A stretch of DNA of 64,000 nucleotides from Escherichia coli O157:H7 (GTDB taxonomy: Bacteria; Pseudomonadota; Gammaproteobacteria; Enterobacterales; Enterobacteriaceae): the NCBI RefSeq assembly GCF_013167455.1, contig NZ_CP038328.1; one strand, written 5' to 3'. Position numbers: made by a program. Positions 3,001 through 12,000 of this stretch are shown here, piece after piece. Positions within the stretch are counted from its first letter, which is position 1. Each line of letters starts with the position of its first letter.

Positions 3001-6000
3001 ATCGGTATTGAAAGCCGGATGGCGCAAATTGTTGGGCTGCAAGATCGCAAACAGATGCGCGTGCGCTACTACGGCCTGAACCACTTTGGCTGGTGGACAT
3101 CAATTGAAGATTTGCAGGGCAACGACCTGATGCACCAGCTGCGGCAATATGTCTCTAAGCACGGTTATGTTCCACCGCAGCAAGATACACATACTGAAGC
3201 GAGCTGGAACGACACCTATGCAAAAGCGCGGGATGTCCAGGCACTGGACCCGGATACATTGCCGAACACCTATCTGAAATATTATCTCTTCCCGGATTAT
3301 GTCGTTCAGCATTCCAACCCTGAACATACTCGCGCGAATGAGGTAATGGAACATCGCGAGAAACAGGTTTTCGATGCTTGCCGCGCCATTACGGCGGCAG
3401 GAAATTCAGCGGCGGGCAAGCTGGAAATTGACGAACATGCGTCATACATCGTCGATCTGGCGGCGGCAATTGCCTTCAACACTCAGGAGCGGATGTTGCT
3501 GATTGTGCCTAACAACGGGGCAATCCATAACTTTGATGATGAAGCTATGGTCGAGATCCCGTGTCTGGTCGGGCACAACGGACCAGAACCACTGGTGGTC
3601 GGCGATATCCCGCAGTTTCAGAAAGGGTTAATGAGTCAGCAAGTGGCGGTGGAAAAACTGGTCGTGGACGCCTGGGAACAGCGTTCATATCAGCACCTGT
3701 GGCAGGCGATTACGTTGTCGAAAACGGTACCGAGCGCCTCGGTCGCCAAAGCTATTCTGGATGAGTTGCTGGAGGCCAACAAAGCGTACTGGCCAGAGTT
3801 ACGTTAATTGTGTGGACTGGCATCCGTTGGGTGCTGGTCCGTATTCTTTAGCACGGCTGAAGGCGCATAACCAAATTTATGTTTAAAGGCTTTGCTGAAA
3901 TGAAAGGAGTCGAAGAAGTTGAGCGTATCAGCGACTTCGCCAACCGAGTTTCCTTGTTGCTTTAATAGCGATAGCGCCAGATCCAGACGCGCATCGAGGT
4001 AATATTCTTTCGGCGTCTTTCCGGTATAGCGTAAAAACAGACGACGCAACCAGGCTTCGCTACAGGGGATCGTGGCAGCCATATCGGCTACGCTCCAGCG
4101 TTGTTGCAGACTGGCATGTAAAGTGGCAATTAATTTTTCAATTTGCCGCCGTTGTGGATCTTTTTTACCGTCTGCGTACATAAGACAAATCCACTGATAA
4201 ATAATTTTCGTCAGAAAAGCGACTGCCAGATTATTTTTTATTGCTTCTGGTGAAGTTATTAACTCAGCAACTTCGGTGAGTTCCTGATTATAAATTTCGC
4301 CATTGTAAATAACGCTTTGCTGACCGATGGGAATATCCATCATACTGGTGGGGGTAAATTCCATCCAGTATTGTTCCCAGACTAAACCTTCACAGTGATA
4401 AGAGTGAATATCCATTGGCTTTAAAAATATAATACAGTTGCCATGCAGTGTTATTTGTTCGCCATTCTTTAAAAGAATCTTCCCACATCCTTGTACGGTA
4501 TACACCGCAACCCATGAGTTGGCGATAAGCGGTTTCTTCTTGTCCCGTGGCCAGATCACCCGGTAATGCTCGTCGGCGTAGGTATGCCAGAGCGAGATCA
4601 GAGAAATTCCGCTGGAGATCACATTTTCGTTAATCAATAAAGGAATATTGTATGGAGTTTCGTTTTTTACATCTGAAGTTTGCAATTTTCCATTCATTTT
4701 AATATCCCTCCGGCGAATTATGCTCACAACCTGAACTTAACAGAAAACAATCCGTTCAGGGATACGACGTTTGTATTTTAAGAATCTGACTGCCTGACCC
4801 GACGCATTTTACCTCTCCCTATATTCATGCGTCCGGGACATAAACATAAATAAGGGCTATGAGATGAATTCGTTACAAATCTTGAGTTTTGTCGGTTTTA
4901 CGCTGCTGGTGGCGATCATCACCTGGTGGAAGGTTCGCAAAACAGATACCGGATCGCAACAAGGCTATTTTCTTGCCGGACGTTCACTAAAAGCGCCGGT
5001 TATTGCCGCTTCGTTAATGTTAACCAACCTTTCCACGGAACAACTGGTTGGTCTTTCCGGGCAGGCCTACAAAAGCGGCATGTCGGTGATGGGCTGGGAA
5101 GTGACTTCAGCGGTGACGCTGATCTTCCTCGCGCTAATCTTTTTACCGCGCTATCTGAAGCGCGGCATTGCCACCATCCCCGATTTTCTGGAGGAACGTT
5201 ATGATAAAACGACGCGTATGATCATCGACTTCTGCTTCCTCATTGCCACCGGCGTCTGCTTTCTGCCGATTGTTCTCTACTCCGGCGCGTTGGCGCTCAA
5301 CAGCCTGTTTCACGTCGGGGAATCGCTACAGATTTCTCACGGTGCGGCTATCTGGCTACTGGTAATTTTGCTTGGTCTGGCGGGAATTTTGTATGCGGTG
5401 ATCGGCGGACTGCGCGCAATGGCAGTGGCGGACTCCATCAACGGTATTGGGCTGGTTATCGGCGGGTTGATGGTGCCGGTATTTGGCTTGATCGCGATGG
5501 GCAAGGGCAGCTTTATGCAGGGCATTGAGCAAATTACCACCGTTCACGCCGAGAAATTAAACTCAGTCGGTGGCCCGACCGATCCCTTGCCGATTGGCGC
5601 GGCATTTACCGGTTTAATTCTGGTGAACACCTTTTACTGGTGTACAAATCAGGGCATCGTGCAACGCACGCTGGCGTCAAAAAGCCTGGCGGAAGGGCAA
5701 AAGGGGGCGCTGTTAACGGCGGTGCTGAAAATGCTCGACCCGCTGGTACTGGTGCTGCCAGGGTTGATTGCGTTTCATCTGTATCAGGATCTACCGAAAG
5801 CCGACATGGCCTACCCGACGCTGGTCAATAACGTTCTGCCAGTGCCACTGGTGGGTTTCTTCGGCGCGGTGTTATTTGGTGCAGTGATCAGTACCTTCAA
5901 CGGCTTTCTGAATAGCGCCAGTACGTTATTCAGTATGGGTATTTACCGTCGCATCATTAACCAGAATGCCGAGCCGCAGCAGCTGGTCACCGTCGGGCGC

Positions 6001-9000: not shown

Positions 9001-12000
9001 CTGGTGTTGTATGCCGGATAGCCGCAAAGCCAGACGCATTGCCGACCCAGGGCTGCAGCCGGAGCGTACATCACTGGCGTGGTTTCGTACCATGCTGGGC
9101 TACGGCGCGTTGATGGCGTTGGCTATCAAACACAACTGGCACCAGGCGGGCATGTTATTCTGGATTTCGATTGGCATCCTCGCCATCGTGGCGCTGATCC
9201 TCTGGCACTACACTCGTAATCGCAATTTAATGGATGTCACGAATAGCGATTTTTCCCAATTTCACGTAGTCCGTGACAAATTTTTGATCTCCCTCGCGGT
9301 GTTATCTCTCGCAATACTGTTTGCTGTAACGCATATACATCAACTTATCGTATTTATTGAGAGAGTCGCATGACAGGAAGTCAGGTCATTGATGCTGAAG
9401 AGGACAGGCATAAACTGGTTGTAGAGTACAAGGATGCTCTGCAACCTGCCGATTTTTATCACAATTTCAAACAACGGGGCATCCGCTCCGTACAGCTTAT
9501 TCCCCATCTTGAATTTGATGACCGGGGCGATATGACGGCCGCTTCGGTGACAGCAGAGCTGTGGGGGAAATTTTTAATTGCCCTGTTTGAGTGTTGGGTG
9601 CGGGCAGATATCAGTCGTATCTCGATTGAGCTTTTTGACGCCACATTACAAAAATGGTGTGGCAGCGAAAACCCGCAACCGCGCCGTGGCTGCCAGGCGT
9701 GCGACTGGCATCTGCTGTGTCCGCACGCTCGGGAGGAGACGCCAGACAGCGTGCTTTGTGCGGGCTATCAGGCGTTTTATTCTTACTCTGCGCCGCATAT
9801 GCGGGTGATGCGTGATCTGATAAAGCAGCATCGTTCTCCCATGGAGCTGATGACGATGCTGCGGTGACGTGAGCTTAAACGGGCTGCCCCTGATGCGACA
9901 TCCGCGTCGCCAGCGGTAGCCAGCACAGCACGATCAACAATCCCATTAAGGTCATCAACAACCCCAGGCTGCCCTGACCGGTTTGCGGCAACATCGCAGA
10001 GAGCGACGCCAGCACGCCGGAACCAATGTTTTGTAGACCGCCGACCAGCGCGCCAGCCGTGCCCGCCAGGAAAGGGAACGGCTCCATCGCGCCGCTGGTC
10101 GCCAGCGGAAACAGCATCCCGGCACCGAAAAAGAACAGCGCGGCGGGAACGAGCAGCGTCCAGACATTCATCACGCCAAACCAGTCGGGGATCCACATCA
10201 GTAAGCCAGCCAGCAGGCAGCAGATAACCGACTGCCACATCAACGTTGAGAAGCGTTTATTAGGACGTCCGGCAAACCATGCCCCAAAAAATGCCGCCGG
10301 AATCGGCAGAATAAACAAAATACTGACCGTCATACTGCTCAGCCCTAACACCGCGCCCATCAGCACGCCGGAGCAGGCTTCAAAGGCGGCAATCCCGGCC
10401 AGACCGCCAATCAGCATCAGCAAATAACAGTTAAAACCGCTGTTACCGAAAAGCGTTTTATAACTGGTAAGCAGGCGCGTGCGCGGTGCGTCGACCGGAC
10501 GCGTTTCCGGCATCCAGCGGGCCATACTGAAGGTCACACCGGCACAAAGTACCAACAAAAAGAGATAACAGGCGCGCCAGTTCCACATCGTATCCAGCAG
10601 ACCGCCGATTAGCGGTGCGAGCAACGGACTGACAAGAATTCCCATGTTTAACAGGCTGTTAGCGTGGCGCAACTGTGTCCGTTCATATAAATCACGCGGC
10701 AAAGTACGCGCCATTACGCCGCCAACGCCGGTGCCCATCCCCTGCATCGCGCTGGCGGCAATCAATACTGTCAAACTGGAGGTCGTGACCGCGACCAGCG
10801 TTGCCAGCATAAAAATGGACATTCCGACGAGGATCACCGGTCGGCGACCCACACGGTCGGAAATCGGGCCATAAAACAGCTGTGAGACACCGTAAGTCAG
10901 CAGATAAGCGCCCATTACGCTCTGCACCGCCCCTTCACGAACGTTGAGATCGCGCGCCATATCGGCAATAGCTGGAATATAAATGGTTTGCGCCATCTGA
11001 CCGACGGCCACGAGTAATACCAACATCAATAACAAATTGATGTTTCTATGCCTTTTCATTATCACGGATGCTTTTATAAAAATAATTAGAATAAGTCACT
11101 ACGCATTCCCATAAATGCGGGAGAGGAATCTATCATATTGATAAATGTTAGCCAGATATACGCCAGGAATGGGGAATTGTTTAGCGGCAGAATATGTAAA
11201 CAAAAGCGGCAATAAATGTTGCCGGGAGGGATGGTAGGTCGGATAAGATGCGTCAGCATCGCATCCGACACCAACCCACACGCTAAATATAAAATGGGAG
11301 CGGTTACCCGCTCCCCTTTAGTGCGACTTGAATCTGAATTACTTCAGGTATTTCAGAACAGCATCAAGCAGTTGCAGTGCTGCAACAATGAGTTTGAGGA
11401 TAAGAATGGCGATATCCACCAGGCTCATACGCGTCTCCTGTGGTTCAGGAGCACTGCCAGCTGACGTACCTTTCCGCTGCCTGTTGCCAGCTGTTGTGCA
11501 CGCGGTATCTCAAGGAGAAACGTTGTGCTCGTTGACATAACACAGTGTGCTCACGCGGGGTTAAGGCGCTGACGGCACCACCCGTTTCAGCCAGGACTTA
11601 GTGCGCCGGGTAACGATGCGGCCCCCGCATAACACATTGCGTACAGTGATATTATAGAAGCTTGCTGTATAAATAAACAGTAATATTTGGACAAAACGCA
11701 AACTGTGATCGATACTCAACTATGCACTAAATACGTCAAAATTCGTGCCGAAATTGCGCGTTTTGCGCGGAACACGTATACTTTCTGTGTTGACATAATA
11801 CAGTGTGCTTTGCGGTTACCAGCCGCGGGCGGCTGACGAAACCTCGCTCCGGCGGGGTTTTTTGTTACCTGCAGTACAGTACAAAACGTGATCAACCCCT
11901 CAATTTTCCCTTGCTGAAAAATTTTCCATTGTCTCCCCTGTAAAGCTGTGCTTGTATAAATATTGTTAAACACAAAACCAACAAGGTCCCCAATGGCTAC

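Follow-up and report, generated by a model that had tools for sequence, protein, structure and literature searches.

The window analysed here is a stretch of 64,000 nucleotides of contig NZ_CP038328.1 from Escherichia coli O157:H7 (assembly GCF_013167455.1). It carries the seven genes yidL to yidF, coding for a regulator (YidL), an importer of the solute:sodium symporter family (SSF; YidK), a predicted sulfatase (YidJ), a small membrane protein (YidI), two DUF202 proteins (YidH, YidG) and YidF, a short relative of the anaerobic sulfatase maturases (anSMEs). The genes agreed between the list of open reading frames (ORFs) and the RefSeq annotation of an identical record (Table 1). yidL is divergent from yidK, and yidI is convergent with yidJ and divergent from yidH. 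Overlaps of 4 bp (ATGA) between yidK and yidJ, 11 bp between yidH and yidG and 4 bp (ATGA) between yidG and yidF are consistent with translational coupling of these pairs. The seven genes, their orientations, the sulfatase signature C-T-P-A-R and the YidF motif CQACDWHLLCPH were all found where a preliminary description of the window had placed them. Several O157 records match the 8-kb region around the cluster at 100% identity, and some version of it was found in 5422 of the 5426 complete E. coli genomes. Taken together with the loci of other species, the cluster is probably a partly decayed copy of an ancestral six-gene module.

Table 1. Features of the yidL-yidF cluster, in coordinates of the window.
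Feature	Coordinates	Strand	Description
yidL	3804..4697	-	AraC-family regulator, 297 aa; ligand-binding domain and double helix-turn-helix
yidL/yidK divergent control region	4698..4863		166 bp
yidK	4864..6579	+	solute:sodium symporter family importer, 571 aa
yidJ	6576..8069	+	predicted cytoplasmic Cys-type S1 sulfatase, 497 aa
YidJ formylglycine signature codons C52-T-P-A-R56	6729..6743	+	from translation
hairpin between yidJ stop and yidI stop	8065..8111		candidate bidirectional terminator
yidI	8116..8565	-	small inner-membrane protein, 149 aa; Escherichia-specific insertion
yidH	8674..9021	+	DUF202 membrane protein, 115 aa
yidG	9011..9373	+	second DUF202 membrane protein, 120 aa
yidF	9370..9867	+	165-aa in-frame deletion relic of anaerobic sulfatase maturase
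YidF surviving cysteines C108-x2-C111-x5-C117 ... C130	9691..9759	+	codons

The distribution of the cluster was investigated by scanning one genome per GTDB species with a YidH profile, and 80 loci were annotated by tblastn. An intact layout, with yidL divergent from the row yidK-yidJ-yidH-yidG-yidF, was detected in five enterobacterial species at the orthologous site and in two Vibrio, one of them with a shuffled order. Full-length YidF of these modules measures 370–399 aa. The five enterobacterial copies, from Citrobacter werkmanii, Kluyvera genomosp. 1, two Pseudocitrobacter and [Enterobacter] lignolyticus, are co-directional and encode a YidF of 370–374 aa with the CxxxCxxC motif. The locus of [E.] lignolyticus lies between yidE and dsdA/emrD/ilvB and consists of an AraC gene on the minus strand followed by genes for an SSF protein, a sulfatase 82% identical to YidJ, two DUF202 proteins and a 374-aa radical-SAM/SPASM protein, all five co-directional and with no yidI. 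Vibrio sp. HA2012 carries the same six genes. Full-length YidF proteins of three loci pass the anSME model TIGR03942 with 470–503 bits (cut-off 349), and full-length YidF is paralogous to AslB (48% identity) and YdeM (46%). The preliminary description had proposed a module for the utilisation of a sulfated substrate. Its grouping of the genes is borne out by the intact co-directional copies, except for yidI, which is absent from all of them and is not a member.

Other loci show the module at various stages of loss. Pluralibacter gergoviae holds the whole of it with a frameshifted yidF. Among the loci without yidLKJ, a full-length yidF follows yidHG in the metagenome-assembled genome (MAG) CTSoil_132, with the motif intact, and in strain RIT691, with CxxxCxxC mutated. 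yidHG with a yidF of 165–178 aa was found in Leclercia, other Citrobacter, a Klebsiella-like MAG, Escherichia albertii and E. marmotae. Nine species, including Enterobacter cloacae, Enterobacter asburiae, Mangrovibacter and Siccibacter, have yidHG only, with dsdA or emrD directly behind. In E. albertii a 66-aa C-terminal fragment is left of yidL, and yidK and yidJ are lost; in its type strain NBRC 107761 yidF is frameshifted (84-aa ORF, two high-scoring segment pairs) and the yidI match also falls into two such pairs. Downstream of yidF, Citrobacter, Leclercia, the Klebsiella-like MAG and [E.] lignolyticus have the D-serine deaminase locus, with convergent dsdA-dsdX and next to it dsdC; in Escherichia emrD comes directly after yidF.

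The nature of the Cys-rich YidF, which had been considered as a possible sulfatase maturation or redox partner, was investigated by profile and structure comparison. Annotation with hidden Markov models, as had been suggested earlier, returned no unrelated family: the match is TIGR03942 of NCBIfam (E = 2e-20), at 73.2 bits for a cut-off of 349.45, and the best stretch covers only positions 160–245 of the 363 of the profile. No Pfam family was matched, Radical_SAM included, and a search of the PDB with the single sequence was also empty. A profile of 17 YidF relatives found its best match in anSMEcpe of Clostridium perfringens (PDB 4K36-4K39; E = 1e-15) over residues 156–362, with a gap over 258–306. 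Structure comparison gave the same answer: the AlphaFold model of YidF reaches a predicted local distance difference test (pLDDT) score of 78.5, and its eight best Foldseek matches in the PDB are all anSMEcpe chains (TM-score 0.55–0.58 on query length). Compared with anSMEcpe, YidF is thus without residues ~1–155, which hold the radical-SAM cluster, and without the 258–306 block with C261 and C276.

The two auxiliary clusters of anSMEcpe, Aux I and Aux II, are bound by C255, C261, C276 and C330 and by C317, C320, C326 and C348, respectively (PMC5715301). In the alignment, C108, C111, C117 and C130 of YidF correspond to the four Aux II ligands. The strings CQACDWHLLCPH and RGCQACDWHLLCPHAREE are both present in YidF, and C108 to H119 are encoded by 9691–9726. 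C108, C111 and C130 are invariant in 17 family members, across genera that are 41–52% identical; a 4-residue deletion merges the positions of C326 and C330, and C117 can be read as either. Of the Aux I ligands nothing comparable is left, as the block of C261 and C276 is deleted, the position of C255 holds no cysteine and R121 stands where C330 would be. The CxxxCxxC motif is deleted as well: after 'MTGS' the alignment resumes only near residue 150 of the full-length protein. What YidF keeps is the original start, the last part of the radical-SAM barrel, the Aux II cysteines and the C-terminal helix. Loss of the CxxxCxxC core and of the Aux I ligands makes the known anSME chemistry, hydrogen abstraction by a 5'-deoxyadenosyl radical, impossible for YidF. 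Judged from its sequence, E. coli YidF cannot act as a maturase by the known mechanism; of the earlier proposal, the relationship to maturases stands and the working partner does not.

The descent of YidF from a sulfatase maturase can be read from its position, its fold and a series of deletions. In four loci, including [E.] lignolyticus, it is the full-length anSME gene that follows yidG, in the position of yidF and with an identical ATGA overlap. Aligned YidF proteins form an erosion series of 374, 363, 310, 249, 220, 213, 195, 176 and 165 aa. An 'MTGC'-type start is preserved in most of them, overlapping yidG by ATGA in the examined loci, and a near-invariant C-terminal tail (...LCAGYxxFFxxSAPxMRVMRDLxxxHRSPxELMxML) in all. 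Given the start ('MTGS/MTGC') that the forms have in common and an alignment that stays in frame, a simple internal deletion is the reading that suggests itself. In a neighbour-joining tree the degraded forms are scattered among full-length ones, and one form of 249 aa has a C-terminus identical to that of the intact [E.] lignolyticus protein, both of which indicate that the decay happened repeatedly. Frameshifts or motif losses arose independently in P. gergoviae, strain RIT691 and the E. albertii type strain. A single ancient truncation behind all short YidF proteins is ruled out by the tree and the 249-aa form; a deletion event shared by Escherichia and Citrobacter is possible, with long-branch attraction as a caveat on the tree.

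Selection on yidF was assessed in the pairs formed by E. coli, E. albertii and E. marmotae, two of which (E. albertii and E. marmotae) are without the sulfatase at the locus. The ratio of non-synonymous to synonymous substitution rates (dN/dS) is 0.12–0.17 at a dS of ~0.6. Non-synonymous differences number 27–36 and synonymous ones 43–45, and the binomial probability against neutrality lies between 4e-11 and 1e-13 in all three pairs. The C-terminal 38 codons are the tightest stretch, with a dN/dS of 0.03–0.10 and 2–5 non-synonymous versus 10–13 synonymous differences; the first 64 codons are the loosest (0.16–0.39). The same codons have changed heavily at their synonymous sites, so the constraint lies at the level of the protein and not of the DNA. 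The conservation of yidF where yidJ was lost implies that the function of the relic does not need YidJ.

In contrast to YidF, the importer and the sulfatase of E. coli are intact. YidK is an SSF member (PF00474, E = 4e-49, 168 bits against a cut-off of 22.8) and scores 854.7 bits with PRK10484 (NF007790, cut-off 401); its gene is constrained within E. coli (dN/dS 0.18). YidJ matches PF00884 over residues 4–341 (E = 3e-72, 243.9 bits, cut-off 25) and carries a C-terminal SGSH_C domain in addition. Its signature C52-T-P-A-R56, followed by AGLFTG, aligns with S-T-P-S-R of the S1_30A sulfatase 9ihk. Residue 2 of YidJ aligns with residues 25–27 of solved homologues and the sulfatase domain starts at residue 4, which leaves no room for a signal peptide. 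This fits import by YidK followed by desulfation in the cytoplasm, and to that extent supports the order of events put forward in the preliminary description. YidJ stays below the cut-offs of the choline sulfatase model TIGR03417 (203.9 versus 433.45 bits) and of the AslA-type arylsulfatase model PRK13759 (219.5 versus 481 bits), and by these scores belongs to neither subfamily. Its closest solved relatives are mostly carbohydrate sulfatases of about 30% identity (E = 4e-46 and weaker). A search on what S1_30A, the nearest of them, acts on gave no useful lead.

The yidJ gene shows a dN/dS of 0.06 between O157 and K-12 and of 0.03–0.04 against other genera. Its branch dN in E. coli (0.023–0.030) equals that in C. 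werkmanii, where the maturase was kept (0.025–0.032), so that no relaxation is apparent. This persistent constraint suggests that YidJ is still used and has to obtain its maturation elsewhere than from YidF, presumably from AslB, YdeM or another E. coli route. Of the 5426 E. coli genomes, 5425 carry aslB and 5346 carry ydeM, and a third formylglycine-forming system is suspected in E. coli according to a passage in PMC8379841. Insertion sequences were noted in the paralogous maturase genes of E. coli strains E423 and 167 (ISApl1 in aslB, IS1A in ydeM). One YidJ variant of 559 aa has an internal tandem duplication of ~62 residues (PARAGLFTG...GECPP repeated), which takes in the stretch that follows the formylglycine motif. 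The database entry of a 437-aa sulfatase with 86% identity to YidJ names the whipworm Trichuris trichiura as its source, which most likely reflects bacterial contamination of that assembly.

Many Gammaproteobacteria have YidJ orthologues of 58–85% identity. In most of the examined loci, which include those of Enterobacteriaceae, Vibrio, Marinomonas, Halomonas and Sodalis, the gene immediately before the orthologue codes for an SSF protein. A regulator of the AraC or cyclic nucleotide monophosphate (cNMP) type usually goes with the pair, and in some cases an anSME as well. For Pasteurella multocida, near-equal fractions of strains were reported to carry a sulfatase, yidK, an anSME and a homologue of hexose-6-phosphate mutarotase (PMC10986470), which gives a faint hint towards a 6-sulfated hexose.

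Both YidH (E = 3e-19, 69.8 bits) and YidG (E = 7e-12, 46 bits) belong to DUF202 (PF02656, cut-off 23.4). yidH is the most constrained gene of the cluster within Escherichia (dN/dS 0.00–0.02; yidG 0.00–0.12). yidHG was kept in all 33 enterobacterial loci examined, yidG always being paired with yidH. Two DUF202 genes followed by an anSME gene recur in sulfatase loci that are not orthologous to yid. The order in Azospirillum is sulfatase, DUF202, DUF202, anSME. In Vibrio hannami (4109–13865 of the examined locus) the triad is joined by 4-bp overlaps and stands beside genes for an SSF protein, a TauE/SafE exporter, a cNMP-type regulator, another sulfatase, a class II aldolase and L-rhamnose isomerase (rhaA); the anSME carries a C-terminal SEC-C motif. 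The recurrence of this triad suggests an accessory role of the DUF202 pair for the maturase or the sulfatase, and sulfate release or docking of the maturase at the membrane may be guessed as that role.

YidI gave no match in the local profile libraries. Its gene was seen in the K-12 and O157 strains of E. coli as well as in E. albertii and E. marmotae (dN/dS 0.14–0.25), and was not found in the examined loci outside Escherichia. It is absent from 1413 of the 5426 complete E. coli genomes (26%), including Nissle 1917, and in these 59 bp separate yidJ from yidH, and yidK-yidJ-yidH-yidG-yidF are co-directional, still with a YidF of 165 aa. yidI is thus an Escherichia-specific insertion and not part of the ancestral module. 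Judged by an alignment of the yidJ-yidH spacers, the yidI-less allele of E. coli may be either ancestral or a secondary deletion. Some assemblies of the yidI-less allele show read-through YidJ-YidH fusion ORFs of 632–641 aa. In the window, a hairpin at 8065–8111 was found by reading and folding, its loop exceeding the limit of the terminator scanner. It reaches -25.4 kcal/mol (z = -5.0) on the plus strand and -23.1 kcal/mol (z = -3.9) on the minus strand, and none of 200 shuffles folded as stably; it has no long U tract, and a role as terminator is putative. Since yidI lies antisense between yidJ and yidH together with this hairpin, yidKJ and yidHGF are probably separate transcripts here, and the cluster appears to be split into at least four transcription units. 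A scan of 3600–10100 for consensus sigma-70 promoters gave 2 promoter-like sites against 7.3 expected, none of them intergenic; such a consensus promoter and terminator scan says nothing about operon structure.

YidL is a member of the AraC/XylS family with both a C-terminal double helix-turn-helix (PF00165, 65 bits, E = 5e-18; PF12833, 63.5 bits) and an N-terminal AraC-type ligand-binding domain (PF02311, 30.5 bits), all over their cut-offs. It reaches no characterised equivalog. yidL is constrained (dN/dS 0.04), and its orthologues are divergent from the SSF gene in every intact module. A longer ORF of 307 aa starting with GTG (to 4727) was rejected, as the mapped transcription start of yidL is the first base of that GTG (PMC3950696). 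In K-12 the yidL promoter is repressed by H-NS and activated by BglJ-RcsB (PMC3950696). Repression by H-NS fits the AT-rich control region (G+C of 41–44% across 4001–5000, compared with 51–54% on the flanks) and the want of consensus promoters. The region between yidL and yidK is partly conserved with C. werkmanii, Kluyvera and Pseudocitrobacter; the alignment shows some conserved blocks and no clear repeated AraC-type site. The spacers of [E.] lignolyticus and P. gergoviae are much shorter.

A probable common explanation is proposed for the gene content, homologies, synteny, deletions and selection statistics described above. In the intact module, YidL would control the divergent operon yidK-yidJ-yidH-yidG-yidF. 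YidK, a Na+/solute symporter, would import a small sulfated organic solute, most likely a sulfated monosaccharide; YidF, as a radical-SAM/SPASM anSME, would convert Cys52 of YidJ to formylglycine, and the matured cytoplasmic YidJ would remove the sulfate. YidH and YidG would be accessory proteins coupled to the maturase, perhaps for export of sulfate or for holding the maturase at the membrane. In E. coli the regulator, the importer and the sulfatase would have stayed intact under purifying selection, with the promoter region silenced by H-NS. Insertion of yidI in the opposite orientation, together with the hairpin after yidJ, would have uncoupled yidHGF from yidKJ, and two in-frame deletions would have reduced yidF to the 165-aa stump without the radical-SAM cluster and Aux I. 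For its maturation YidJ would now depend on one of the paralogues AslB and YdeM or on other means of the cell, and the stump would be kept for another function, probably one that involves YidH and YidG. Conjectural in this proposal are the class of substrate, the sequence of events, what YidH and YidG do and which maturase serves YidJ.

Several observations weigh against the proposal or narrow it. yidHG persists in nine enterobacterial species without a trace of yidF or yidJ at the locus, so the present role of YidHG is not tied to YidJ. DUF202 homologues of Actinobacteria and Pectobacterium have no sulfatase or anSME gene within 7 kb, and the function of DUF202 is therefore not intrinsically linked to sulfatases. 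The presence of a TauE-family exporter in the V. hannami cluster weakens the idea of DUF202 proteins as sulfate exporters. No catabolic gene recurs with the SSF-sulfatase pair across the examined loci, which suggests that the desulfated product enters central metabolism directly. The Vibrio SSF proteins are only 40–43% identical to YidK, although the sulfatases are 70–73% identical, and the Vibrio transporter may not be strictly orthologous to YidK. The 'sugar' in the proposed substrate derives from the family of the transporter and the nearest solved relatives of YidJ. In the K-12 annotation all seven genes are labelled putative or uncharacterised.

Among other explanations, a real possibility is that the locus holds two separate units which are neighbours by history, a silent yidLKJ sulfatase cassette and a housekeeping membrane system of yidHG, with or without yidF, that has nothing to do with sulfate esters, such as a channel for the efflux or leak of small solutes. 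This agrees with the strong constraint on yidHG and with its retention in all 33 loci, nine of them without yidF and yidJ. When overexpressed, YidH was a hit in a screen for D-alanine export, as was YidG in its first round, but an uptake assay did not confirm this (PMC10299036), and YidF overexpression raises D-serine resistance according to a table in PMC12363166. In most genera yidF abuts dsdA-dsdX-dsdC, and this adjacency together with the D-alanine and D-serine reports may be a coincidence or a lead. These overexpression phenotypes are however weak and unconfirmed, and in four contexts (Enterobacteriaceae, Vibrio HA2012, V. hannami and Azospirillum) the DUF202 pair stands between the sulfatase gene and a full-length anSME gene to which it is translationally coupled. 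Four independent contexts of this kind argue for an original role linked to the sulfatase or the maturase. It is very unlikely, in turn, that the whole yidL-yidF cluster of E. coli is a working unit in which YidF is the active maturation or redox partner of YidJ. The homology to anSMEs, the four cysteines equivalent to the Aux II [4Fe-4S] ligands, the purifying selection on yidF and the contiguous, co-directional genes of the yidI-less strains would agree with it. Against it, YidF has lost CxxxCxxC together with the remainder of its N-terminal radical-SAM part and the ligands of Aux I. The stump is also no less conserved where yidJ is missing from the locus, in E. albertii, E. marmotae, Citrobacter and Leclercia, and in the window yidI, along with the strong hairpin, parts yidJ from yidHGF.

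For yidF itself, it is unlikely that the gene is a pseudogene remnant whose frame is open by chance or because translation through yidF helps the expression of yidG. yidF was degraded repeatedly and independently across lineages and is dispensable in many of them, leaving no trace in nine species and being frameshifted in the E. albertii type strain; its dN is 5–7 times that of emrD, and public E. coli assemblies hold many truncated variants. Against this stand the depletion of non-synonymous changes in all three Escherichia pairs, the protein-level constraint on the C-terminal 38 codons, the invariance of C108, C111 and C130 across genera and a model that folds with a pLDDT of 78.5. A rather speculative reading, scarcely better placed than the pseudogene, takes the stump as a repurposed single-cluster Fe-S protein, made of Aux II and the C-terminal helix, which works with YidH and YidG. 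The DUF202-DUF202-anSME triad could then mark a hitherto undescribed membrane accessory system of anSMEs for sulfate release or efflux, or for delivery of electrons or substrate; in a bolder version, the YidF relic or YidHGF would aid the suspected route of Cys-type sulfatase maturation in E. coli that does without AslB and YdeM. Least probable of all is that YidJ acts in vivo as a phosphatase or phosphonate-monoester hydrolase of the alkaline-phosphatase superfamily, which would be highly surprising. Its K-12 label is 'putative sulfatase/phosphatase' and it weakly matches PehA and phosphonate monoester hydrolases, but it carries the Cys-type formylglycine signature, its orthologues are linked to a dedicated anSME and its best solved relatives are sulfatases.

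The proposed module belongs to a kind of system, with sulfatase, anSME, transporter and regulator, that is already known, and the yidJ/yidF pairing itself was reportedly noted in the 1990s. As in yid, an S1 sulfatase gene stands beside a radical-SAM/SPASM maturase gene in atsA-atsB of Klebsiella and in aslA-aslB and ydeN-ydeM of E. coli. In contrast to these pairs, YidJ is without a signal peptide and its gene goes with those of an SSF importer and an AraC regulator, which points to import before desulfation. The yid cluster also differs by two DUF202 genes between sulfatase and maturase, while none is annotated beside aslB and ydeM, and by the reduction of its maturase to a relic in E. coli. 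In the utilisation of choline-O-sulfate, an imported sulfate ester is hydrolysed by a cytoplasmic S1 sulfatase. YidJ partly matches the model of this choline sulfatase (betC of Sinorhizobium and Ensifer; 204 bits versus 433). It is not an equivalog, the transporter of yid is of a different family and the yid module has no bet genes.

The V. hannami cluster resembles yid in its SSF protein, its cytoplasmic-type sulfatase and the coupled DUF202-DUF202-anSME triad. It differs in a sulfatase only 27% identical to YidJ, in the type of its regulator and in the added rhaA, class II aldolase and TauE-family exporter, the yid module being without catabolic genes. From its gene content the V. hannami cluster seems to serve the use of a sulfated deoxy-hexose of the rhamnose type, and it is a precedent for a monosaccharide that is first imported and then desulfated in the cytoplasm. 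For the DUF202 proteins, the relevant comparison is the yeast vacuolar transporter chaperone (VTC) complex (Vtc1; PDB 7YTJ, 8I6V, 9UMG), whose Vtc1 is in the same Pfam family. In VTC, several three-helix DUF202 units form an anion-conducting pore. The YidH profile matches the transmembrane domain of Vtc1 over ~95 residues (E = 1.6e-4). Unlike VTC, YidH and YidG have no SPX or polymerase domains, and a link of the pair to sulfate is conjecture.

The genes around the cluster were also inspected. The glv genes are intact in the window (608–3807), with an EIICB of the phosphotransferase system annotated at 538 aa and a 440-aa 6-phospho-alpha-glucosidase; in K-12 glvB/glvC is split and glvG is a pseudogene, and Nissle 1917 and E. 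marmotae are without glv and yidP. yidP, coding for a GntR-family regulator (window ~1–573, minus strand), is a frameshifted pseudogene in the identical O157 record and intact in K-12. Downstream of emrD (11086–12200) lie ysdE, tisB and ivbL-ilvBN, with istR by K-12 annotation, as in K-12; in Nissle 1917 no tisB is annotated downstream of emrD.

Modest novelty lies in the finding of intact orthologous modules, in the repeated erosion of the maturase to a SPASM fragment still under selection, in the coupling of DUF202 to anSME genes and in the yidI polymorphism. E. coli is the standard host for sulfatase production, and yet its own three sulfatase loci are uncharacterised and the way it makes formylglycine is only partly understood; a sulfatase kept under selection without its cognate maturase bears on this point. 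C. werkmanii, Kluyvera, Pseudocitrobacter, [E.] lignolyticus and Vibrio offer intact modules in which substrate and maturase can be studied. Coupling to anSMEs is the first genomic-context lead for the bacterial DUF202 proteins, and YidF provides a natural example of a radical-SAM enzyme eroded to a SPASM fragment on which selection still acts. Within a cryptic Escherichia clade, enrichment of yidJ and yidL was reported for the strains associated with the gut (PMC7716201), which makes the use of host- or diet-derived sulfated compounds plausible.

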